Assembly: GCA_964583985.1 (NCBI GenBank)
Contig: CAZOYD010000050.1
Span: forward strand, 1 to 25,066
Source of the DNA: an uncultured archaeon
Lineage (GTDB): Archaea; Asgardarchaeota; Lokiarchaeia; Sigyniarchaeales; SOKP01
Length of the DNA: 25,066 nt
Reading direction: 5' to 3'
The number at the start of each line of letters is the position of its first letter. The stretch's first letter is position 1. Below the pieces are notes generated by a model. It ran no database searches, was not told the origin of the DNA, and saw only the letters and a program-made list of their open reading frames with translations. Shown here in pieces: positions 9-23,890 of this stretch. The position numbers and the translations under genes are program-made.

Positions 9-1295
9 TTACATATCAAGCTTTTTTTTAATCACTATAGCAATGGTTATAAATAGCACTGAAACAAGCAATATTAAATTATAACCTGGAATTATTGGTG
101 TATCGAGTCCTCCATCCGTTATCGTCCAAGAAAAGTTAGCAATAATAAATTGCCTTGCATCTGCTGCTTCACTGCTAAATTTTGAACGACCTGCGTGAAA
201 GTCTACTCCAATTTGCAAGGGTAATTGCGACCAACCTAATAACAAATTATCATAATTAAGCGTCGATAGTGTAACTGCTAATAACATATTACTCATGGTT
301 GTCACACTTGAGACGTCCCAAGTACCAAGGGACTGGTCGAATTTTATAGCAAAGCTGAACATCGAACCCATATCTGTTACACTCGAGACGTCCCAAGTAC
401 TAAGGGACTGGTCGAATTTTATAGCAAGGTGGAACATCGAATTCATGTCTGTTACGCTTGAGACATCCCAATTATCAATGGGCTGATTGAATGAACGAGC
501 ATCTTGGAACATGCAATTCATATCTGTCACGCTTGAGACATTCCAATTACTAATGGGCTGGTTGAATGAATATTCCCCCCTAAACATCCCATGCATGTTT
601 GTTGCGCTCGAGACGTTCCAAGCACCGATAGGTTGGTTAAATGTTCCCTTCCCTGCCCATATACAGAACATCCATCCCATATCTGTTACATTCGAGACAT
701 CCCATCCATTCATATTGCCGCTATCACCAAGGTTAGGGCAGTTAAAAAAAGCGCTACGTAGAGTGGTAGTTCCCGTTAAATTTAAATTATCGATAGCTGT
801 GATTACTAAATTTTCACACCCTTCAAAATAAGATCCTGAATTTCCTAATCGTAAGCATCCCCATTGTTCGATCTCAATTATCTTTAACAGATCTCCTTCA
901 TCATTAAAACACCAACCAATGATCATTCCTGTGATCGTAATGGTGTAAATCCCCTCGGACGCATAGGTATGTGTAACGTTAGGGTCACTAGAAATCGTGA
1001 TTATATTGCTGTTTCCATCGCCCCAAAATACCGTGAAGGAGTAATTTCCATTCCATTCCAAAGGCAAGCGGACTTGATTACTGTTGCTGGAACCCGAGCT
1101 AGTCTTTGTTGTGTTCCAAACTGAGATAAAATCGTTTGGATCTGATGTGATAGGTTTAATAAACTTACTTTTTGTAGTTATTGGCTTTTGCTCGTGAGAT
1201 AGAAACGTGAAAACTGAAAAGTTAACTAATACCAGGGATAATACTATGAAAACTCCAACAAACTTTAATGATTTGTTTTTCATCAACTTAATCAC
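9..1295 (-). CDS. Surface protein: N-terminal signal/TM, PKD-like domain, DUF285/BspA-like repeats, C-terminal Loki-CTERM-like anchor
   Basis: Hydrophobic N-terminus; PKD-like FTVFWGDG..THTYASEGIYTITITG; IEQWG..FEGCENL; six W(D/N)VS(S/N)xTxMxxM repeats; ends PIIPGYNL + hydrophobic helix + KKK. True start is probably ATG 1283 or TTG 1286, because the track's GTG lies in an SD-like GTGA. Confidence 0.88.
   Translation of the reverse strand: MIKLMKNKSLKFVGVFIVLSLVLVNFSVFTFLSHEQKPITTKSKFIKPITSDPNDFISVWNTTKTSSGSSNSNQVRLPLEWNGNYSFTVFWGDGNSNIITISSDPNVTHTYASEGIYTITITGMIIGWCFNDEGDLLKIIEIEQWGCLRLGNSGSYFEGCENLVITAIDNLNLTGTTTLRSAFFNCPNLGDSGNMNGWDVSNVTDMGWMFCIWAGKGTFNQPIGAWNVSSATNMHGMFRGEYSFNQPISNWNVSSVTDMNCMFQDARSFNQPIDNWDVSSVTDMNSMFHLAIKFDQSLSTWDVSSVTDMGSMFSFAIKFDQSLGTWDVSSVTTMSNMLLAVTLSTLNYDNLLLGWSQLPLQIGVDFHAGRSKFSSEAADARQFIIANFSWTITDGGLDTPIIPGYNLILLVSVLFITIAIVIKKKLDM
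280..715 (-). repeat. Coding tandem repeats, 75-bp (25-aa) period (DUF285 repeats)
   Basis: Trp codons of the W(D/N)VS units lie at 318, 393, 468, 543, 618 (75-bp spacing) and 702. Segments 310-352 and 385-427 match at 42/43 nt. Confidence 0.9.
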
Positions 1296-16000: not shown

Positions 16001-16384
16001 TTAAGTGTAATAATTTTTCCTATATTTGTCAATAGCGTCACGCAACGCATCAGTCGCGAGATTACTACAATGCAATTTAATAGGAGGTAATCCATCTAAA
16101 GCATCAGCAACATCATTTTTCGTGATATTATATGCTTCGTCAAGTGTTTTACCTTTTGCTAATTCAGTTATCATGGAGGATGTAGCGATTGCAGCTGCAC
16201 AACCAAATGTCTGAAAGCGAATATCTTCGATAATCTCCTTATCATTTTCTTTTTTGACTTTTATATAAATATACATCAAATCTCCACAAACAGGGTTCCC
16301 ATGTTCGCCCACGGCACTTGCATCTTTAAGTTCTCCCATATTTCTTGGTGATTTAAAATGATCCATTACTTTATCAGAATACAT
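16001..16384 (-). CDS. iscU: Fe-S cluster assembly scaffold IscU/NifU-N
   Basis: YSDKVMDHFKSPRNMG, GNPVCGD, FQTFGCAAAIATSS, LPPIKLHC; GAGGCGG SD. Confidence 0.96.
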   Translation of the reverse strand: MYSDKVMDHFKSPRNMGELKDASAVGEHGNPVCGDLMYIYIKVKKENDKEIIEDIRFQTFGCAAAIATSSMITELAKGKTLDEAYNITKNDVADALDGLPPIKLHCSNLATDALRDAIDKYRKNYYT

Positions 16385-16426
16385 GTTTAACCGCCTTCTT
16401 TAAGTATCATCCTATTTATATAAATA

Positions 16427-18790
16427 TTAATTCAATATTATTAATTTCCTTTTTTTTGGTAAAGAAACTTTTTCAACCCCTAATTCCTTCACGTAATCTA
16501 CAACTTCAATTAAATTCTTTGCAGATTGGTGAAAGAAGCATACTTCTTTAGGTTCTAAGGCTTTAATCATTTCAGCTAATTGATTTTTATCAGCATGAAG
16601 TTTTATTTGTAATTGCGGAGCAAACGTATTTATTAGCATTGCTCGAAATGGAACACTCCACGATTCGGTAAATGTAATTTCTTGACCTCCATTTATTAGA
16701 TTTAATCCGGGTTCTTCGTGAATTGAGCCAGCAAGAAACACCAAATTGTGAGGATTACGGCCAATTACATTGATGATGTTCCGAATGATACCGTAGGATA
16801 AATCTGGTGGGTGACTGATGATTATGTTATTTTTTTTCTTTAAAAAATCTAAATCATTCAGATCAAACCATCTAAATTTTATAGAATTAAAGGGATTTGC
16901 TTTATCCTTTATCAATTTAGAAATTGGACCGTAAATGTATTGATAACGATGATTAATTACTTGAATATTTTTTCTTACCATCATATCTACATAAATATTG
17001 GGACGCTTTGTGAATCCTTTTTGTCTCAATTGTAACTTCCTAAAGTACCTCCAAAATATAAGCATGAACGTAATTGCTAAACTCGAGGGATCTGTCCCAA
17101 TTAACACGTTATCTTCGTATTCCGCTTTTTGTTCCATGAATAAAATGAGGCTATGAAATTGATCAGAGATATTCCCATGATCTTCTTTTGCACTAGTTCC
17201 ATCTATTAACAAATAATCAATTGGTCTTGAAATTTGTTCTAAAAACCTTTTAGTTCCAGAAAAAGGAGTAATATCATTGTAAGTATAATCTCCAGTATAA
17301 AGGAAACGAAATTCATTAACTTTTATTAAAATCATTAAAGCTCCCGGCATGTGACCAGCATGAAAGAATGAGAAATAACAATTTTTTTCTTTAAATTCTA
17401 ATTTTTCACCATTCTCTACATATATTACATTCTTGACTATGTTGCGATATTCTTCTTCCTCAATTTCTTCAAAAGTTTCTTGTTTTAAGAATTTTGAATC
17501 TCTTAAGAGGAATAGATCCATTGTTATCCGGGAACTTAAGATTGGAACGTCGGGATACATTTGTATTAATTTTTTTAGTCCCGAAACGTGATCATAATGA
17601 CTATGTGAAATAAAAATCGCATCAATTTTAGGCAAAAATAAAGATTTTTCCTTTAAATCATTAATTTCGGAATCTTCAAATTGAGTTCCTTGTTCTTGTA
17701 TTTCTTGGCTTAGTTCTTCATTGTGAAGTTCTTCATTTTCTGCTTCCTTTATCAATTCGGGTAAGTTATCGAGATAATCAATAATATTTTGAAAATCATT
17801 GTATTTCTTAATTGGGAAATTCATGTCATTGGGTTCATTTTCTTCGGTATCATCAGGTTCATACTCTGAAATTCCGCAATCCAGAAGAAAATTTAAATCC
17901 CCTAAACCTAGAATATGACAATTATGATTAGGTTTTAATACAATAGGATAGATAGAAACCCTAATTTTTTCATTTTTAATTTTTGAGAGAGAGATGTTGT
18001 TAAAATAATTGGAATCATACCTTTTTTCTATTTTATCGATTGCGAGGGAGATCTCACTTTTTCCGACGGGGACACCAGTGATATAAAAATACCATCCATA
18101 TTTCTTAACCAATTTCTCAAGATTATCATACATTTTATCTCCATTTAAAGCCTTTATTACAATTACTTTTTCTTTTATGTAATAGATGATATTTCTAATT
18201 GATTTTTTTTCTTCTATTGGTACTAATAGATTATTGTCAAAAAGATCATCCAAGACTTCCAATATATTCATTTGAGGGATATTTTTTGACTGTATTAGTT
18301 TAGAATAATGAAAATATTCTTTAGTATGATATAAAGAACGCATATTTAGTTTTTCTTCAACTGAGATGGTTAGATCTTCAAAAATGTAATCTTGTGAGCC
18401 TACAATCTCTTCCTTCTTCTTTTGCTTTTCCTTTTTTTTCTTTGGTTCTGAAATTTGTTTTTTTTCGTTTTCTGAAACAAAGAAAAACCATCCATACTGG
18501 TTAATTAACTTATCTCGATTCCATATAATATCCTTACCTGATGTAGTAATAAGAATAATAATTCTATCATTTGAAGAATAAATTACCTTAGAAATAGATT
18601 TTTTAGATTTTTTAGAAATTATAGTGTCCTCGGAAAAAAAATGTGTAAAAACATCCGTTATTGATTTTTGTATAATACCCCTCTTTTCCATATAACGTAA
18701 TTTATCCTTATAAATTTTAATTTTATAAGAGGAGCTTAATATATCTACTTCTTCAAGGATAATCGTGTTATCTGCAAATTTATATTCCAT
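16427..18790 (-). CDS. Metallo-beta-lactamase/beta-CASP family nuclease with duplicated N-terminal domain
   Basis: LLDCG, SHSHYDH, AGHMPGA, LYTGDY, LIDGT, LHAD, FFHQ correspond to MBL motifs I-IV and beta-CASP motifs A-C. Confidence 0.88.
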   Translation of the reverse strand: MEYKFADNTIILEEVDILSSSYKIKIYKDKLRYMEKRGIIQKSITDVFTHFFSEDTIISKKSKKSISKVIYSSNDRIIILITTSGKDIIWNRDKLINQYGWFFFVSENEKKQISEPKKKKEKQKKKEEIVGSQDYIFEDLTISVEEKLNMRSLYHTKEYFHYSKLIQSKNIPQMNILEVLDDLFDNNLLVPIEEKKSIRNIIYYIKEKVIVIKALNGDKMYDNLEKLVKKYGWYFYITGVPVGKSEISLAIDKIEKRYDSNYFNNISLSKIKNEKIRVSIYPIVLKPNHNCHILGLGDLNFLLDCGISEYEPDDTEENEPNDMNFPIKKYNDFQNIIDYLDNLPELIKEAENEELHNEELSQEIQEQGTQFEDSEINDLKEKSLFLPKIDAIFISHSHYDHVSGLKKLIQMYPDVPILSSRITMDLFLLRDSKFLKQETFEEIEEEEYRNIVKNVIYVENGEKLEFKEKNCYFSFFHAGHMPGALMILIKVNEFRFLYTGDYTYNDITPFSGTKRFLEQISRPIDYLLIDGTSAKEDHGNISDQFHSLILFMEQKAEYEDNVLIGTDPSSLAITFMLIFWRYFRKLQLRQKGFTKRPNIYVDMMVRKNIQVINHRYQYIYGPISKLIKDKANPFNSIKFRWFDLNDLDFLKKKNNIIISHPPDLSYGIIRNIINVIGRNPHNLVFLAGSIHEEPGLNLINGGQEITFTESWSVPFRAMLINTFAPQLQIKLHADKNQLAEMIKALEPKEVCFFHQSAKNLIEVVDYVKELGVEKVSLPKKRKLIILN

Positions 18791-18890: not shown

Positions 18891-19295
18891 TTATTTATAC
18901 TTCGTATATTTAATTTCATCTAAAACAGTCATCAATTCACCAATGGGATAATTCTTATTTTTTATTATCATTTCAACATTAGGGAATTTTAAGCCACTTA
19001 AGAGATCCTTATAATTATCTTTAGAAAATTCTATTCCAATTAAATCAGGTAACGCTTTATTAGCATATAATGCACCAGTGAGCTCTTGAAATCTTGGATG
19101 AAGGAATTCTTCTATGGTTTTGCTAAACTTTATGCTAAGCAAAGGAGCAACTGAGATTAAATCAATAATTTCAGTTAAAATTTGAATTTGATTTTTGCTT
19201 AATTTGGCAATTCCGTATTCTTTTCCCTTTTTTTTATACTCATCCTTTATATAAAAAATATCATCTTTTAAAATATTATATTCATATTCTCTCAT
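18891..19295 (-). CDS. Hypothetical protein
   Basis: 134-aa ATG ORF filling the gap, co-oriented with neighbours; no motif recognised. Confidence 0.7.
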   Translation of the reverse strand: MREYEYNILKDDIFYIKDEYKKKGKEYGIAKLSKNQIQILTEIIDLISVAPLLSIKFSKTIEEFLHPRFQELTGALYANKALPDLIGIEFSKDNYKDLLSGLKFPNVEMIIKNKNYPIGELMTVLDEIKYTKYK

Positions 19296-19413: not shown

Positions 19414-20055
19414 TTAATTATATAGTTTTAATAATTTTGAAATATCAATTGGACCTCTTATGTTTATTAAACTCACTAAATTTTTATCTAAAGGTTGAAT
19501 CAGTTGTTCTACTGAGACATAATTTATTTTCCATTGTTTATCGATTAAATTGAGTAAACCGTAATTTTCGTTCATTAAAATCTCTTTTGCGCGTTCAAAT
19601 CCTTTTTCAACTGGATAAATAGCAAAAAACGGTTCTAAAAATCCATTTCCCCATCGAGGGATGCTACAATCATATCCTTCAGATTGTTGAATCATGAATT
19701 TGATAACTTCAGCTTTAATCAAAGGCATATCACATGATAGAACGAAAGCTTTTTCAAAATTTAGCTTTTTTAGTTGTTTAAATCCCGAATAAATTCCAAG
19801 CATTGGCTTAAATATATGCTGGTGCTTGAAAATATCCCTATCATCAATAATAAACTTAATGTCTTCGGGGAATTCTATCATATCCCGATACTCATAAATT
19901 TGATCTTGTGAATGAGCAACGAGAAATACATCTTGATCAATACCTGATAACGTTTCAATTTGATGAAGAATTAACGGTTTTCCTAATATATTAATAACTG
20001 CTTTTTCAATCCCAAATCGAGTGCTTTTTCCTCCAATAAGTATAAGAATAGCCAA
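19414..20055 (-). CDS. mobA: Molybdenum cofactor guanylyltransferase-like NTP transferase
   Basis: LIGGKSTRFGIEKA, GKPLI, PMLGIYSG, VLSCDMP, LEPFFAIY. Start may be ATC at 20073. Confidence 0.8.
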   Translation of the reverse strand: MAILILIGGKSTRFGIEKAVINILGKPLILHQIETLSGIDQDVFLVAHSQDQIYEYRDMIEFPEDIKFIIDDRDIFKHQHIFKPMLGIYSGFKQLKKLNFEKAFVLSCDMPLIKAEVIKFMIQQSEGYDCSIPRWGNGFLEPFFAIYPVEKGFERAKEILMNENYGLLNLIDKQWKINYVSVEQLIQPLDKNLVSLINIRGPIDISKLLKLYN

Positions 20056-22687: not shown

Positions 22688-23890
22688 CTAACTTCTAATT
22701 TGTTTATTTTGTAAAGGAGATATCTGCCTTAATCTTTTTATGACATGAGGTAATTGTTCAAGAAAATAATTAATATCCTCTTCCACCGTGAACCTTCCTA
22801 ATGAGATCCTTAAAGAGCCATGGGCATCTTGTGGGGGCAATCCGATAGCAAGAAGAACATGAGAAGGTTCCAATGACTTGGAGGAACAAGCTGAACCAGT
22901 GGAGGTTGCAATTCCTATTGAGTCTAAATCTAAAACAATGGATTCTCCCTCAATGTATTTAAATCCCAAATTCACATTATTGGGTAATCTTAATGTTGGA
23001 TGACCATTTAAATAACTATCTTGGATGGTTTCTAATACAGTTTTTATTATCATATCTCTAAATCTTGTTTGACACCTGATTTCTGTAGCCATTTCATCCC
23101 TAGCCAATTCAACTGCTTTTGCAAAAGCTGCTATCCCAGGTACATTTACGGTACTGGGCCTCATATCTCTTTCATGACCTCCACCAAACATGATAGGCTC
23201 AATATATTTTCCCCAACTTGAACTTATCCCTTTATTCCGTATAAATAGCATTCCAACGCCTTTAGGACCATATAATTTATGAGCAGATGCAGACAATAGA
23301 TCTATGTTTAACTCATTAACATCGATCGGAATTTTCCCAAAAGCTTGGACCCCGTCAGAATGAAAAAGTACATCATGTTTTTTGGCGATTTTACCGATCT
23401 CTTTAATAGGTTCGATTGTTCCAATTTCATTATTAGCAAGCATTATACTTATTAATATGGTTTTGTCAGTAATAGATTCTTCCAATTGATTTACATCAAT
23501 TAGACCTTGCTTATTTACGGGCAAATACGTGATCTCAAAGCCTTGTTTTTCTAAATTATGACAAGTATTTATTACCGCATGATGCTCGATATTACTTGTA
23601 ATGATGTGATTTCCCCGTGATTTATTTTTTCTAGCCACTCCCAAAAGTGCGATGTTATCCGATTCAGTACCTGAAGAAGTAAAAAATATATCATTTCTTT
23701 CAGCATTTATTAACGAAGCAATAGTTTTTCTAGATTTATTTAATGTTTTTGCTGATTTTTGTCCCATAGCATGTAAGCTAGAGGAATTCCCATAGTTTTC
23801 TTTCATCTGTTTATTAAATTCTTCTATTACGCGAGGATCCATTGGAGTTGTTGCGCCATAATCAAAATAAATATAATTCGAAATATCCAT
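22688..23890 (-). CDS. iscS: Cysteine desulfurase, group I (IscS/NifS)
   Basis: YFDYGATTP, TSSGTESDN, IEHHAV, ANNEIGT, SAHKLYGPKG (PLP Lys), STGSACSS (catalytic Cys). Confidence 0.96.
   Translation of the reverse strand: MDISNYIYFDYGATTPMDPRVIEEFNKQMKENYGNSSSLHAMGQKSAKTLNKSRKTIASLINAERNDIFFTSSGTESDNIALLGVARKNKSRGNHIITSNIEHHAVINTCHNLEKQGFEITYLPVNKQGLIDVNQLEESITDKTILISIMLANNEIGTIEPIKEIGKIAKKHDVLFHSDGVQAFGKIPIDVNELNIDLLSASAHKLYGPKGVGMLFIRNKGISSSWGKYIEPIMFGGGHERDMRPSTVNVPGIAAFAKAVELARDEMATEIRCQTRFRDMIIKTVLETIQDSYLNGHPTLRLPNNVNLGFKYIEGESIVLDLDSIGIATSTGSACSSKSLEPSHVLLAIGLPPQDAHGSLRISLGRFTVEEDINYFLEQLPHVIKRLRQISPLQNKQIRS

Follow-up and report, generated by a model that had tools for sequence, protein, structure and literature searches.

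A lokiarchaeial beta-CASP nuclease with a tandemly duplicated N-terminal module of predicted KH-like fold

Archaeal beta-CASP ribonucleases are classed as aCPSF1, aCPSF1b, aCPSF2 and aRNase J (PMC3553952). A stretch of 25,066 nucleotides from a metagenome-assembled genome (MAG) of the Lokiarchaeia, referred to here as the window, encodes a metallo-beta-lactamase (MBL) fold nuclease of the beta-CASP type in which two repeats, R1 and R2, precede the catalytic core; positions 18080-18784 of the window correspond to residues 3-237 of the protein. The locus raises the question of what these repeats are, where they come from and what kind of nuclease carries them. The analysis indicates that the protein is probably a zinc-dependent beta-CASP nuclease with an intact catalytic site, akin to CPSF73 and aCPSF1, which most likely cuts RNA. 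It fits none of the four classes named above and is a third, fast-evolving beta-CASP paralogue that is found in Asgard archaea only.

The duplicated N-terminus and the catalytic core

The two halves of the N-terminal region were compared with BLASTP (residues 1-118 against residues 119-247). This resulted in a single ungapped alignment of residues 2-106 with residues 134-238 at an offset of 132, with 31/105 identities, 59/105 positives and an E of 2e-16. Profiles of R1 and R2, based on 120 aligned homologues, matched each other with a probability of 99.8% and an E of 3.7e-29; hence the similarity between the repeats is far beyond chance. They are joined by the sequence EKKQISEPKKKKEKQKKK at residues 109-126. 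A GxxG motif occurs in neither repeat of the protein sequence. Pfam reported no domain at E <= 1 in R1 or R2, and scans with NCBIfam and PADLOC found no domain in the repeats either. The original prediction for this DNA, which was made from the letters of the sequence, had described two repeats that align without gaps at an offset of 132, a Lys-rich linker that joins them and the absence of the KH GxxG loop; all of these points are borne out.

A tree of the R1 domains, the R2 domains and the domains of relatives that have only one copy resolved three clades with a support of 100, 99 and 96. The longest stem is that of R1; the tree is unrootable and does not indicate which copy is ancestral. 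From this separation into three clades it follows that there was one duplication, which occurred before the two-copy clade radiated. The module was thus duplicated once, in tandem, in one family of the Lokiarchaeia.

The remainder of the protein contains everything that defines a beta-CASP enzyme, namely MBL motifs 1-4 and motifs A, B and C. The residues are D304 (motif 1), H396-S-H-Y-D-H401 (motif 2), H480 (motif 3), D501 (motif 4), D530 (A), H732 (B) and H754 (C). Across 49 members of the family all seven motifs show no or almost no variation, in agreement with the earlier claim of a full catalytic set with His at motif C. Pfam matches are restricted to residues 372-772 and comprise Lactamase_B, Beta-Casp and RMMBL, the 'RNA specificity' domain, which was only weakly detected. 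Structures of aCPSF1, CPSF73, INTS11, TTHA0252 and Cas14 superpose on the core with Z scores of 30-34; for CPSF73 and INTS11 the range is 29-33. A sequence search of the PDB returned aCPSF1, CPSF73 and INTS11 at about E 1e-8, and the family profile gave its highest score with MTH1203, the aCPSF1 of M. thermautotrophicus (151.5 bits, E 2.7e-43), while CPSF73 scored 127 bits. The best NCBIfam model was that of aCPSF1, TIGR03675, which matched the core only, with 74.9 bits against a curated equivalog cut-off of 580.2; weaker matches to Cas14 and RNase J followed. By analogy with aCPSF1 and CPSF73 the chemistry would be that of a zinc-dependent RNA endonuclease and/or a 5'-3' exonuclease.

The beta-CASP superfamily also includes DNA nucleases, and Artemis is among the weaker sequence matches; furthermore, the DNA-replication proteins DnaA domain I and DciA have KH-like folds. 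An Artemis/SNM1-like enzyme that acts on DNA in repair or processing is nevertheless improbable. The nuclease shares the His at motif C with the RNA-acting members, and RMMBL is detected, albeit weakly. The profile scores are 95-151 bits for aCPSF1, CPSF73 and INTS11, 80-85 bits for TTHA0252 and Cas14, and only 41-48 bits for Artemis, and the nuclease gene has no repair genes nearby in the window. Even less credible are two further possibilities. The coexistence of the nuclease and aCPSF1 in one genome would suit an inactive scaffold partner of aCPSF1, comparable to CPSF100 or INTS9; all metal ligands are invariant, however, which is not the case in CPSF100 and INTS9. Cas14 structures superpose with a Z of 30-32 and NCBIfam gives a weak Cas14 match, as would be expected of an effector like that of CRISPR type VII; yet the match to NF045584 reaches 42.7 bits with a cut-off of 800, and the window contains no cas gene, no CRISPR array and no match to the PADLOC defence models. 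We judge the scaffold, Cas14 or defence, and DNA-nuclease explanations to be unlikely.

Fold of the repeats and their relation to aCPSF1

An AlphaFold2 model of residues 1-245, computed with 50 aligned relatives, has a mean predicted local distance difference test (pLDDT) score of 85.7, and only the Lys-rich linker is disordered in it. The model of the full-length protein has a pLDDT of 86.7 and a predicted template modelling score (pTM) of 0.75. In the model each repeat consists of a beta-hairpin and a helix, which are followed by a helix, (a short helix), two strands, two helices and a strand. In R2 the KH-like core is closed by an invariant strand, GWYFYITG. The best PDB matches found by Foldseek were weak (E 0.02, probability up to 0.94); these were the N-terminal regions of 3af5, 2ycb, 9bct and 2xr1, aligned over about 210 columns. 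VIA-align, a structural aligner that is independent of Foldseek, was run against 48,161 PDB representatives. It placed 3af5 first, with a Z of 7.0, a root mean square deviation (rmsd) of 1.5 A over 66 residues and 21% identity; model residues 172-242 align with residues 78-147 of the chain. The matches ranked after aCPSF1 were uS3, Era, NusA, RbfA, DnaA domain I and DciA, which are type II KH folds and match R2 as well as R1 (residues 43-114). Re-alignment of the top 1000 Foldseek chains gave 2ycb_B (Z 7.5), 2xr1_A (Z 7.3), 9bct_J (Z 7.3) and 3af5 (Z 7.0). These top four are independent structures of aCPSF1/FttA, and all of them align through KH2, with an rmsd of 1.5-2.1 A over 66-71 residues. 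KH2 comprises residues 76-144 in FttA of T. kodakarensis (PMC11616081) and residues 71-138 in MTH1203 (PMC3095777).

These models and matches make it very probable that the repeats adopt a type II KH-like fold. Neither repeat has a Pfam KH match or a GxxG motif, the features by which the KH family is recognised, and a KH-type fold is present in the model. The first KH domain of aCPSF1, KHa, is also devoid of GxxG and was overlooked by sequence analysis (PMC3095777); therefore the absence of this motif does not exclude a KH domain. The earlier proposal, in which an unrecognised domain takes the place of the KH domains, does not agree with these results, since the structural matches are KH2 of aCPSF1 and other type II KH domains; the match to KH exists at the level of the fold only. 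Most likely the repeats are not a new fold; they are enlarged, degenerate KH domains that lack the GxxG loop.

Does this resemblance reflect descent from aCPSF1? Several observations argue for it. The order of the parts is the same in the nuclease and in aCPSF1/FttA (arCOG00543, TIGR03675), the ribonuclease of transcription termination in archaea: two KH-type domains, a helical linker, and an MBL domain into which a beta-CASP domain is inserted. The complete set of catalytic motifs and the His at motif C are common to both, and aCPSF1/FttA is the best structural match for the core (Z 33-34) as well as for R2 (Z 7.0-7.5). The full-length model fits best on aCPSF1 (2ycb_A, Z 34.0; 2xr1_B, Z 33.9), and these alignments start at model residue 242. 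The linker between R2 and the MBL domain, model residues 242-277, superposes on residues 138-180 of the chains of 2ycb, 2xr1, 3af5 and 9bct. Alignments with CPSF73, INTS11 and TTHA0252 begin only at about residue 275. A helical linker from KHb to the MBL domain has been described as an archaeal-specific feature of aCPSF1 (PMC3095777), and the nuclease model has such a linker. The alignment of the family profile with MTH1203 starts inside KH2, where 'lkklvkkyGWYfYiTGvpvgkseis' is paired at high posterior probability.

When the GW strand is taken as an anchor, the second strand and the second helix are separated by 8 residues in the nuclease and by 12 in the aCPSF1 of the same genome (...SGKPGIVIGKKGM, followed by NL...); this spacing was read by eye from the sequences and is not a computed alignment. 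Because of this difference the canonical GxxG loop appears to have been lost by deletion. We lean towards the view that the module descended from the KH2-linker module of aCPSF1. In this scenario KH2 and the linker of an aCPSF1-like ancestor would have lost the GxxG loop and have been extended and duplicated. Homology between the repeats and the KH domains of aCPSF1 is likely, although it has no sequence-statistical support.

Other results weigh against descent from aCPSF1, or against the wider interpretation of the enzyme. In hhalign the repeats gave insignificant matches (P 0.04-0.5) to profiles of KH1, KH2 and the whole N-terminus of Asgard aCPSF1; the control comparison of KH1 with KH2 gave a P of 4e-7. 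The best hhalign path, though insignificant, is the collinear alignment of the GW strands. Hidden Markov models (HMMs) of R2, with or without the linker, were searched against 10,035 six-frame open reading frames of the genome and matched only their own gene, neither aCPSF1 nor a second copy of the domain. When the family profile is aligned with the aCPSF1 of the same genome, the alignment does not begin before the MBL domain. In the profile comparison the core scores about the same with aCPSF1 (102 bits) as with the genome's aCPSF2-like protein (99 bits), and BLASTP gives the core 74 bits with the aCPSF2-like protein and 42 bits with aCPSF1. With 176 bits, these two proteins resemble each other more than either resembles the nuclease. 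Since the core is equidistant, it is only the N-terminal architecture that speaks for descent from aCPSF1. The Z of about 7 also calls for caution, because the aligner warns that such values may reflect a common arrangement; alone it shows the fold and not the descent. Finally, RNA as the most likely substrate is deduced by analogy, from the family resemblance and the His at motif C.

The alternative, which takes up the new targeting or interaction module of the original prediction, is that a KH-less, aCPSF2-like core acquired its N-terminal module independently. The lack of a Pfam, NCBIfam or profile-profile signal to KH is in line with this, and so are the length of each unit, which exceeds that of a KH domain by about 40 residues, the BLASTP scores, which put the core nearer to the aCPSF2-like paralogue, and the fact that small folds of a common type can yield a Z near 7. 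We still consider an independent origin unlikely for three reasons. The top match among some 48,000 PDB representatives is KH2 of the very family that also matches the catalytic part best, and four structures concur in this. The linker that follows R2 superposes on the linker that is specific for aCPSF1. Lastly, the GW strand and the SEI helix align with high posterior probability.

Even if descent from aCPSF1 is accepted, the nuclease is clearly different from aCPSF1. The second KH domain of aCPSF1 has a GxxG motif (PMC3095777, PMC3553952), while both KH-like domains of the nuclease lack it. Each of the latter carries an additional beta-hairpin and helix at its N-terminus. The repeats are recent duplicates of one another (30% identity) and not the counterparts of KHa and KHb. 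The nuclease furthermore has the Lys-rich linker and, within the MBL domain, an acidic insert of 61-124 residues. The last 16 or so residues of aCPSF1 form a conserved dimerisation motif; Asgard aCPSF1 proteins end in IETRAPQNLETIRLK and the nuclease family in VEKVSLPKKRKLIILN, which shows a similar hydrophobic pattern, with a Pro, without being the same motif. CPSF73 and INTS11, eukaryotic endonucleases of 3'-end processing, have the identical MBL and beta-CASP motifs but no KH-type module at the N-terminus; they possess dimerisation domains at the C-terminus instead and work as parts of large complexes. aCPSF2, a KH-less 5'-3' exonuclease, consists of the core only, with about 420-450 residues (PMC3553952), whereas the nuclease has an N-terminal extension of 276 residues.

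Paralogues, distribution and charged accessories

The listed sequencing runs are of salt-marsh metagenome DNA, with no RNA run among them. The genome, a MAG of 3.8 Mb, encodes its own true aCPSF1, which scores 881.6 bits with TIGR03675, and an aCPSF2-like protein of 431 residues, to which the nuclease core is 25% identical. Since both are present, the nuclease is a third beta-CASP paralogue and not the termination factor itself. Our search of the literature found no description of this family. The proposal of a distinct archaeal beta-CASP subfamily stands: the family occurs in Asgard archaea only, and the genome has a genuine aCPSF1 as well.

The databases contain more than 370 proteins that match the nuclease. 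The top 120 are 66-85% identical to it over the full length, and all of these come from Asgard MAGs; the databases name the matches only 'MBL fold metallo-hydrolase' or 'Cft2 family'. The contig collection of GTDB contains 110 species-level genomes with the family. We also surveyed 300 genomes sampled across the Asgard phylum. Of the 67 genomes of the GTDB family to which the window belongs, 57-59 carry the two-copy form, with a single such gene in each. The full-length family profile found the nuclease in 63 of the 299 other sampled genomes, 57 of them in one family; the N-terminal query found it in 59/67 genomes of the same family, plus one false positive elsewhere. The gene was found in none of four genomes (90-100% complete) of one genus within the window's own family and, with the full-length profile, in none of seven genomes of the sister family. 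A weak match of the N-terminal query in the sister family (genome G209) turned out to be a phosphoglucomutase and was discarded. The distribution is thus patchy even among close relatives. aCPSF1, in contrast, is universal and vertically inherited, with one orthologue per archaeal genome; in our sample it was found in 40 of the 41 genomes checked.

In a separate observation on aCPSF1, two other Asgard genomes gave a match in two halves about 1 kb apart (G018:C16:10210-13266 and G039:C10:13392-16447). In G018 both halves lie in one open frame of 1042 residues, which suggests an intein inside aCPSF1.

The N-terminal 245 residues were searched exhaustively against 1.8 billion representatives. This search returned 34 proteins, all of which are beta-CASP proteins or short, fragment-like pieces. 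Nine of them are single-copy beta-CASP proteins of 555-731 residues with a domain that is 30-34% identical to R2; they are labelled as Heimdallarchaeota (P0176), Odinarchaeota (P0177), Helarchaeota (P0178) and other Promethearchaeota. In the genome survey the single-copy forms occurred in only four other families. These relatives share the extended KH-like domain, the GWYFYITG strand, the linker and the core with the two-copy form (27-38% identity overall), but the domain is present only once in them, and they lack both the basic linker between repeats and the acidic insert in the MBL domain. One of them, P0169 (731 residues), has an insertion of about 70 residues in the linker between the KH-like and MBL domains, a different elaboration of the scaffold. 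The search for standalone copies of the domain, which had been proposed as a check, found no convincing standalone or otherwise fused copy. The apparently shorter matches are fragments at contig ends or split genes, and P0168 (136 residues) looks like a truncated N-terminus. No longer fused proteins were among the matches, which is weak evidence. The ESM Atlas yielded no usable match.

Two charged features accompany the duplication. The stretch between the repeats (residues 107-129 here, 20-30 residues in relatives) has a net charge of +2 to +10 in 38/38 two-copy proteins. In the same 38 proteins the spacing between motifs 1 and 2 is 61-124 residues with a net charge of -2 to -28, here about -20; this spacing is 22-39 residues in 11/11 single-copy members. 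The combination of duplication, basic linker and acidic insert is hence found in all 38 two-copy proteins and in none of the 11 single-copy proteins. The full-length model shows the acidic insert as a long helix flanked by disordered segments. The Lys-rich linker would add unspecific affinity for RNA, and the acidic insert may have a modulating effect on the enzyme, for instance if it pairs with the basic linker; that the two interact electrostatically is a guess.

The locus, its neighbours and a possible role

The positions of the gene, of its parts and of the gene downstream are listed in Table 1.

Table 1. Positions of the nuclease gene, its parts and the adjacent IscU gene in the window (aa, amino acids).
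Feature	Position	Strand	Description and basis
Whole gene	16427..18790	-	787-aa beta-CASP metallo-beta-lactamase nuclease (P0001); stop codon included; list of open reading frames and translation
Repeat R1	18467..18790	-	No GxxG; repeat alignment; model pLDDT 80-94; aa 43-114 match KH-type folds with Z 3-4.1
Inter-repeat linker, Lys-rich, disordered	18413..18466	-	aa 109-126; pLDDT <50
Repeat R2	18071..18412	-	aa 127-240; layout as in R1; predicted KH-like core aa 172-240
R2-to-MBL linker	17963..18070	-	aa 241-276; structural equivalent, in the model, of the aCPSF1-specific KHb-to-MBL linker
MBL and beta-CASP catalytic core	16430..17962	-	aa 277-787; motifs 1-4 and A-C; Pfam, structure matches, invariant metal ligands
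Acidic insertion between MBL motifs 1 and 2	17627..17878	-	aa 305-388; net charge -19; part long helix, part disordered (model)
Motif 2, HSHYDH	17588..17605	-	aa 396-401; translation; invariant in 49 sequences
Motif C, His754	16529..16531	-	Translation; nearly invariant in 49 sequences
IscU/NifU_N gene	16001..16384	-	Directly downstream of the nuclease gene; Pfam NifU_N, E 1.4e-47

The surroundings of the gene were inspected in related loci (L066-L145). In 60 of the 70 evaluable loci an IscU gene follows the nuclease gene on the same strand at a distance of <=174 bp. In 38/70 loci a gene for an IscS-like cysteine desulfurase is found within 3 kb upstream, on the same strand, and in 11 it is directly adjacent; in the window iscS is at 22688-23890, and four further genes are situated between it and the nuclease gene. 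None of the three single-copy loci examined had iscU as a neighbour. The link to iron-sulfur (Fe-S) clusters is treated as a lead only, because synteny within one family may simply be inherited.

Some other features of the locus were noted. The 42-bp spacer before iscU (16385-16426) contains a TATA-like sequence, TTTATATAAATA, about 30 nucleotides before the ATG; judged from this sequence, iscU may have its own promoter in spite of the tight spacing. Directly upstream of the nuclease is an open reading frame of 134 residues (18891-19295, minus strand) that has no Pfam or PADLOC match and is upstream in 16/80 related loci. A MobA-like nucleoside triphosphate transferase (19414-20055) is upstream of the nuclease in 35/80 related loci. 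A 75-bp tandem repeat with about 2.5 copies and 76-87% matches is located at 300-621, inside an open reading frame at 9-1295 (minus strand).

How might the repeats contribute to the function of the enzyme? The KH domains of aCPSF1 select U-rich RNA and stabilise ribonucleoprotein complexes, and they are dispensable for catalysis (PMC3553952, PMC8716108, PMC11616081). Because GxxG has been lost in both copies, the repeats of the nuclease would either dock the enzyme on another protein or make non-canonical contacts with RNA, for which KHa of aCPSF1 is a precedent. A candidate surface consists of conserved basic and aromatic residues (patches MRxLYHTKEY, EKKSI and KKYGW) in the added hairpin-helix and around the GW strand.

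The finding is of moderate importance, in that it reveals neither a new fold nor a new kind of system. What the family illustrates is the remodelling of a KH module, in which the GxxG loop appears to have been lost, while extension and duplication enlarged the domain and charged accessories joined it. Eukaryotic CPSF73 and INTS11 have likewise swapped direct RNA recognition for recruitment by partners. The nuclease is a defined target for biochemistry, and its conserved position, usually between iscS and iscU, provides a concrete hypothesis. A far-reaching interpretation, which we consider decidedly improbable at present, is that this second active CPSF73-like nuclease, with KH domains turned into protein-docking modules, forms a specialised cleavage module in one family of the Lokiarchaeia, which either pairs with aCPSF1 or with RNA polymerase, or else processes the iscS-iscU transcripts. 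If the former were true, the pairing would be a prokaryotic forerunner of the cleavage modules of eukaryotic CPSF and Integrator, which are based on paralogues. If the latter were true, the processing of iscS-iscU transcripts would link the supply of Fe-S clusters to the turnover of RNA in these archaea.

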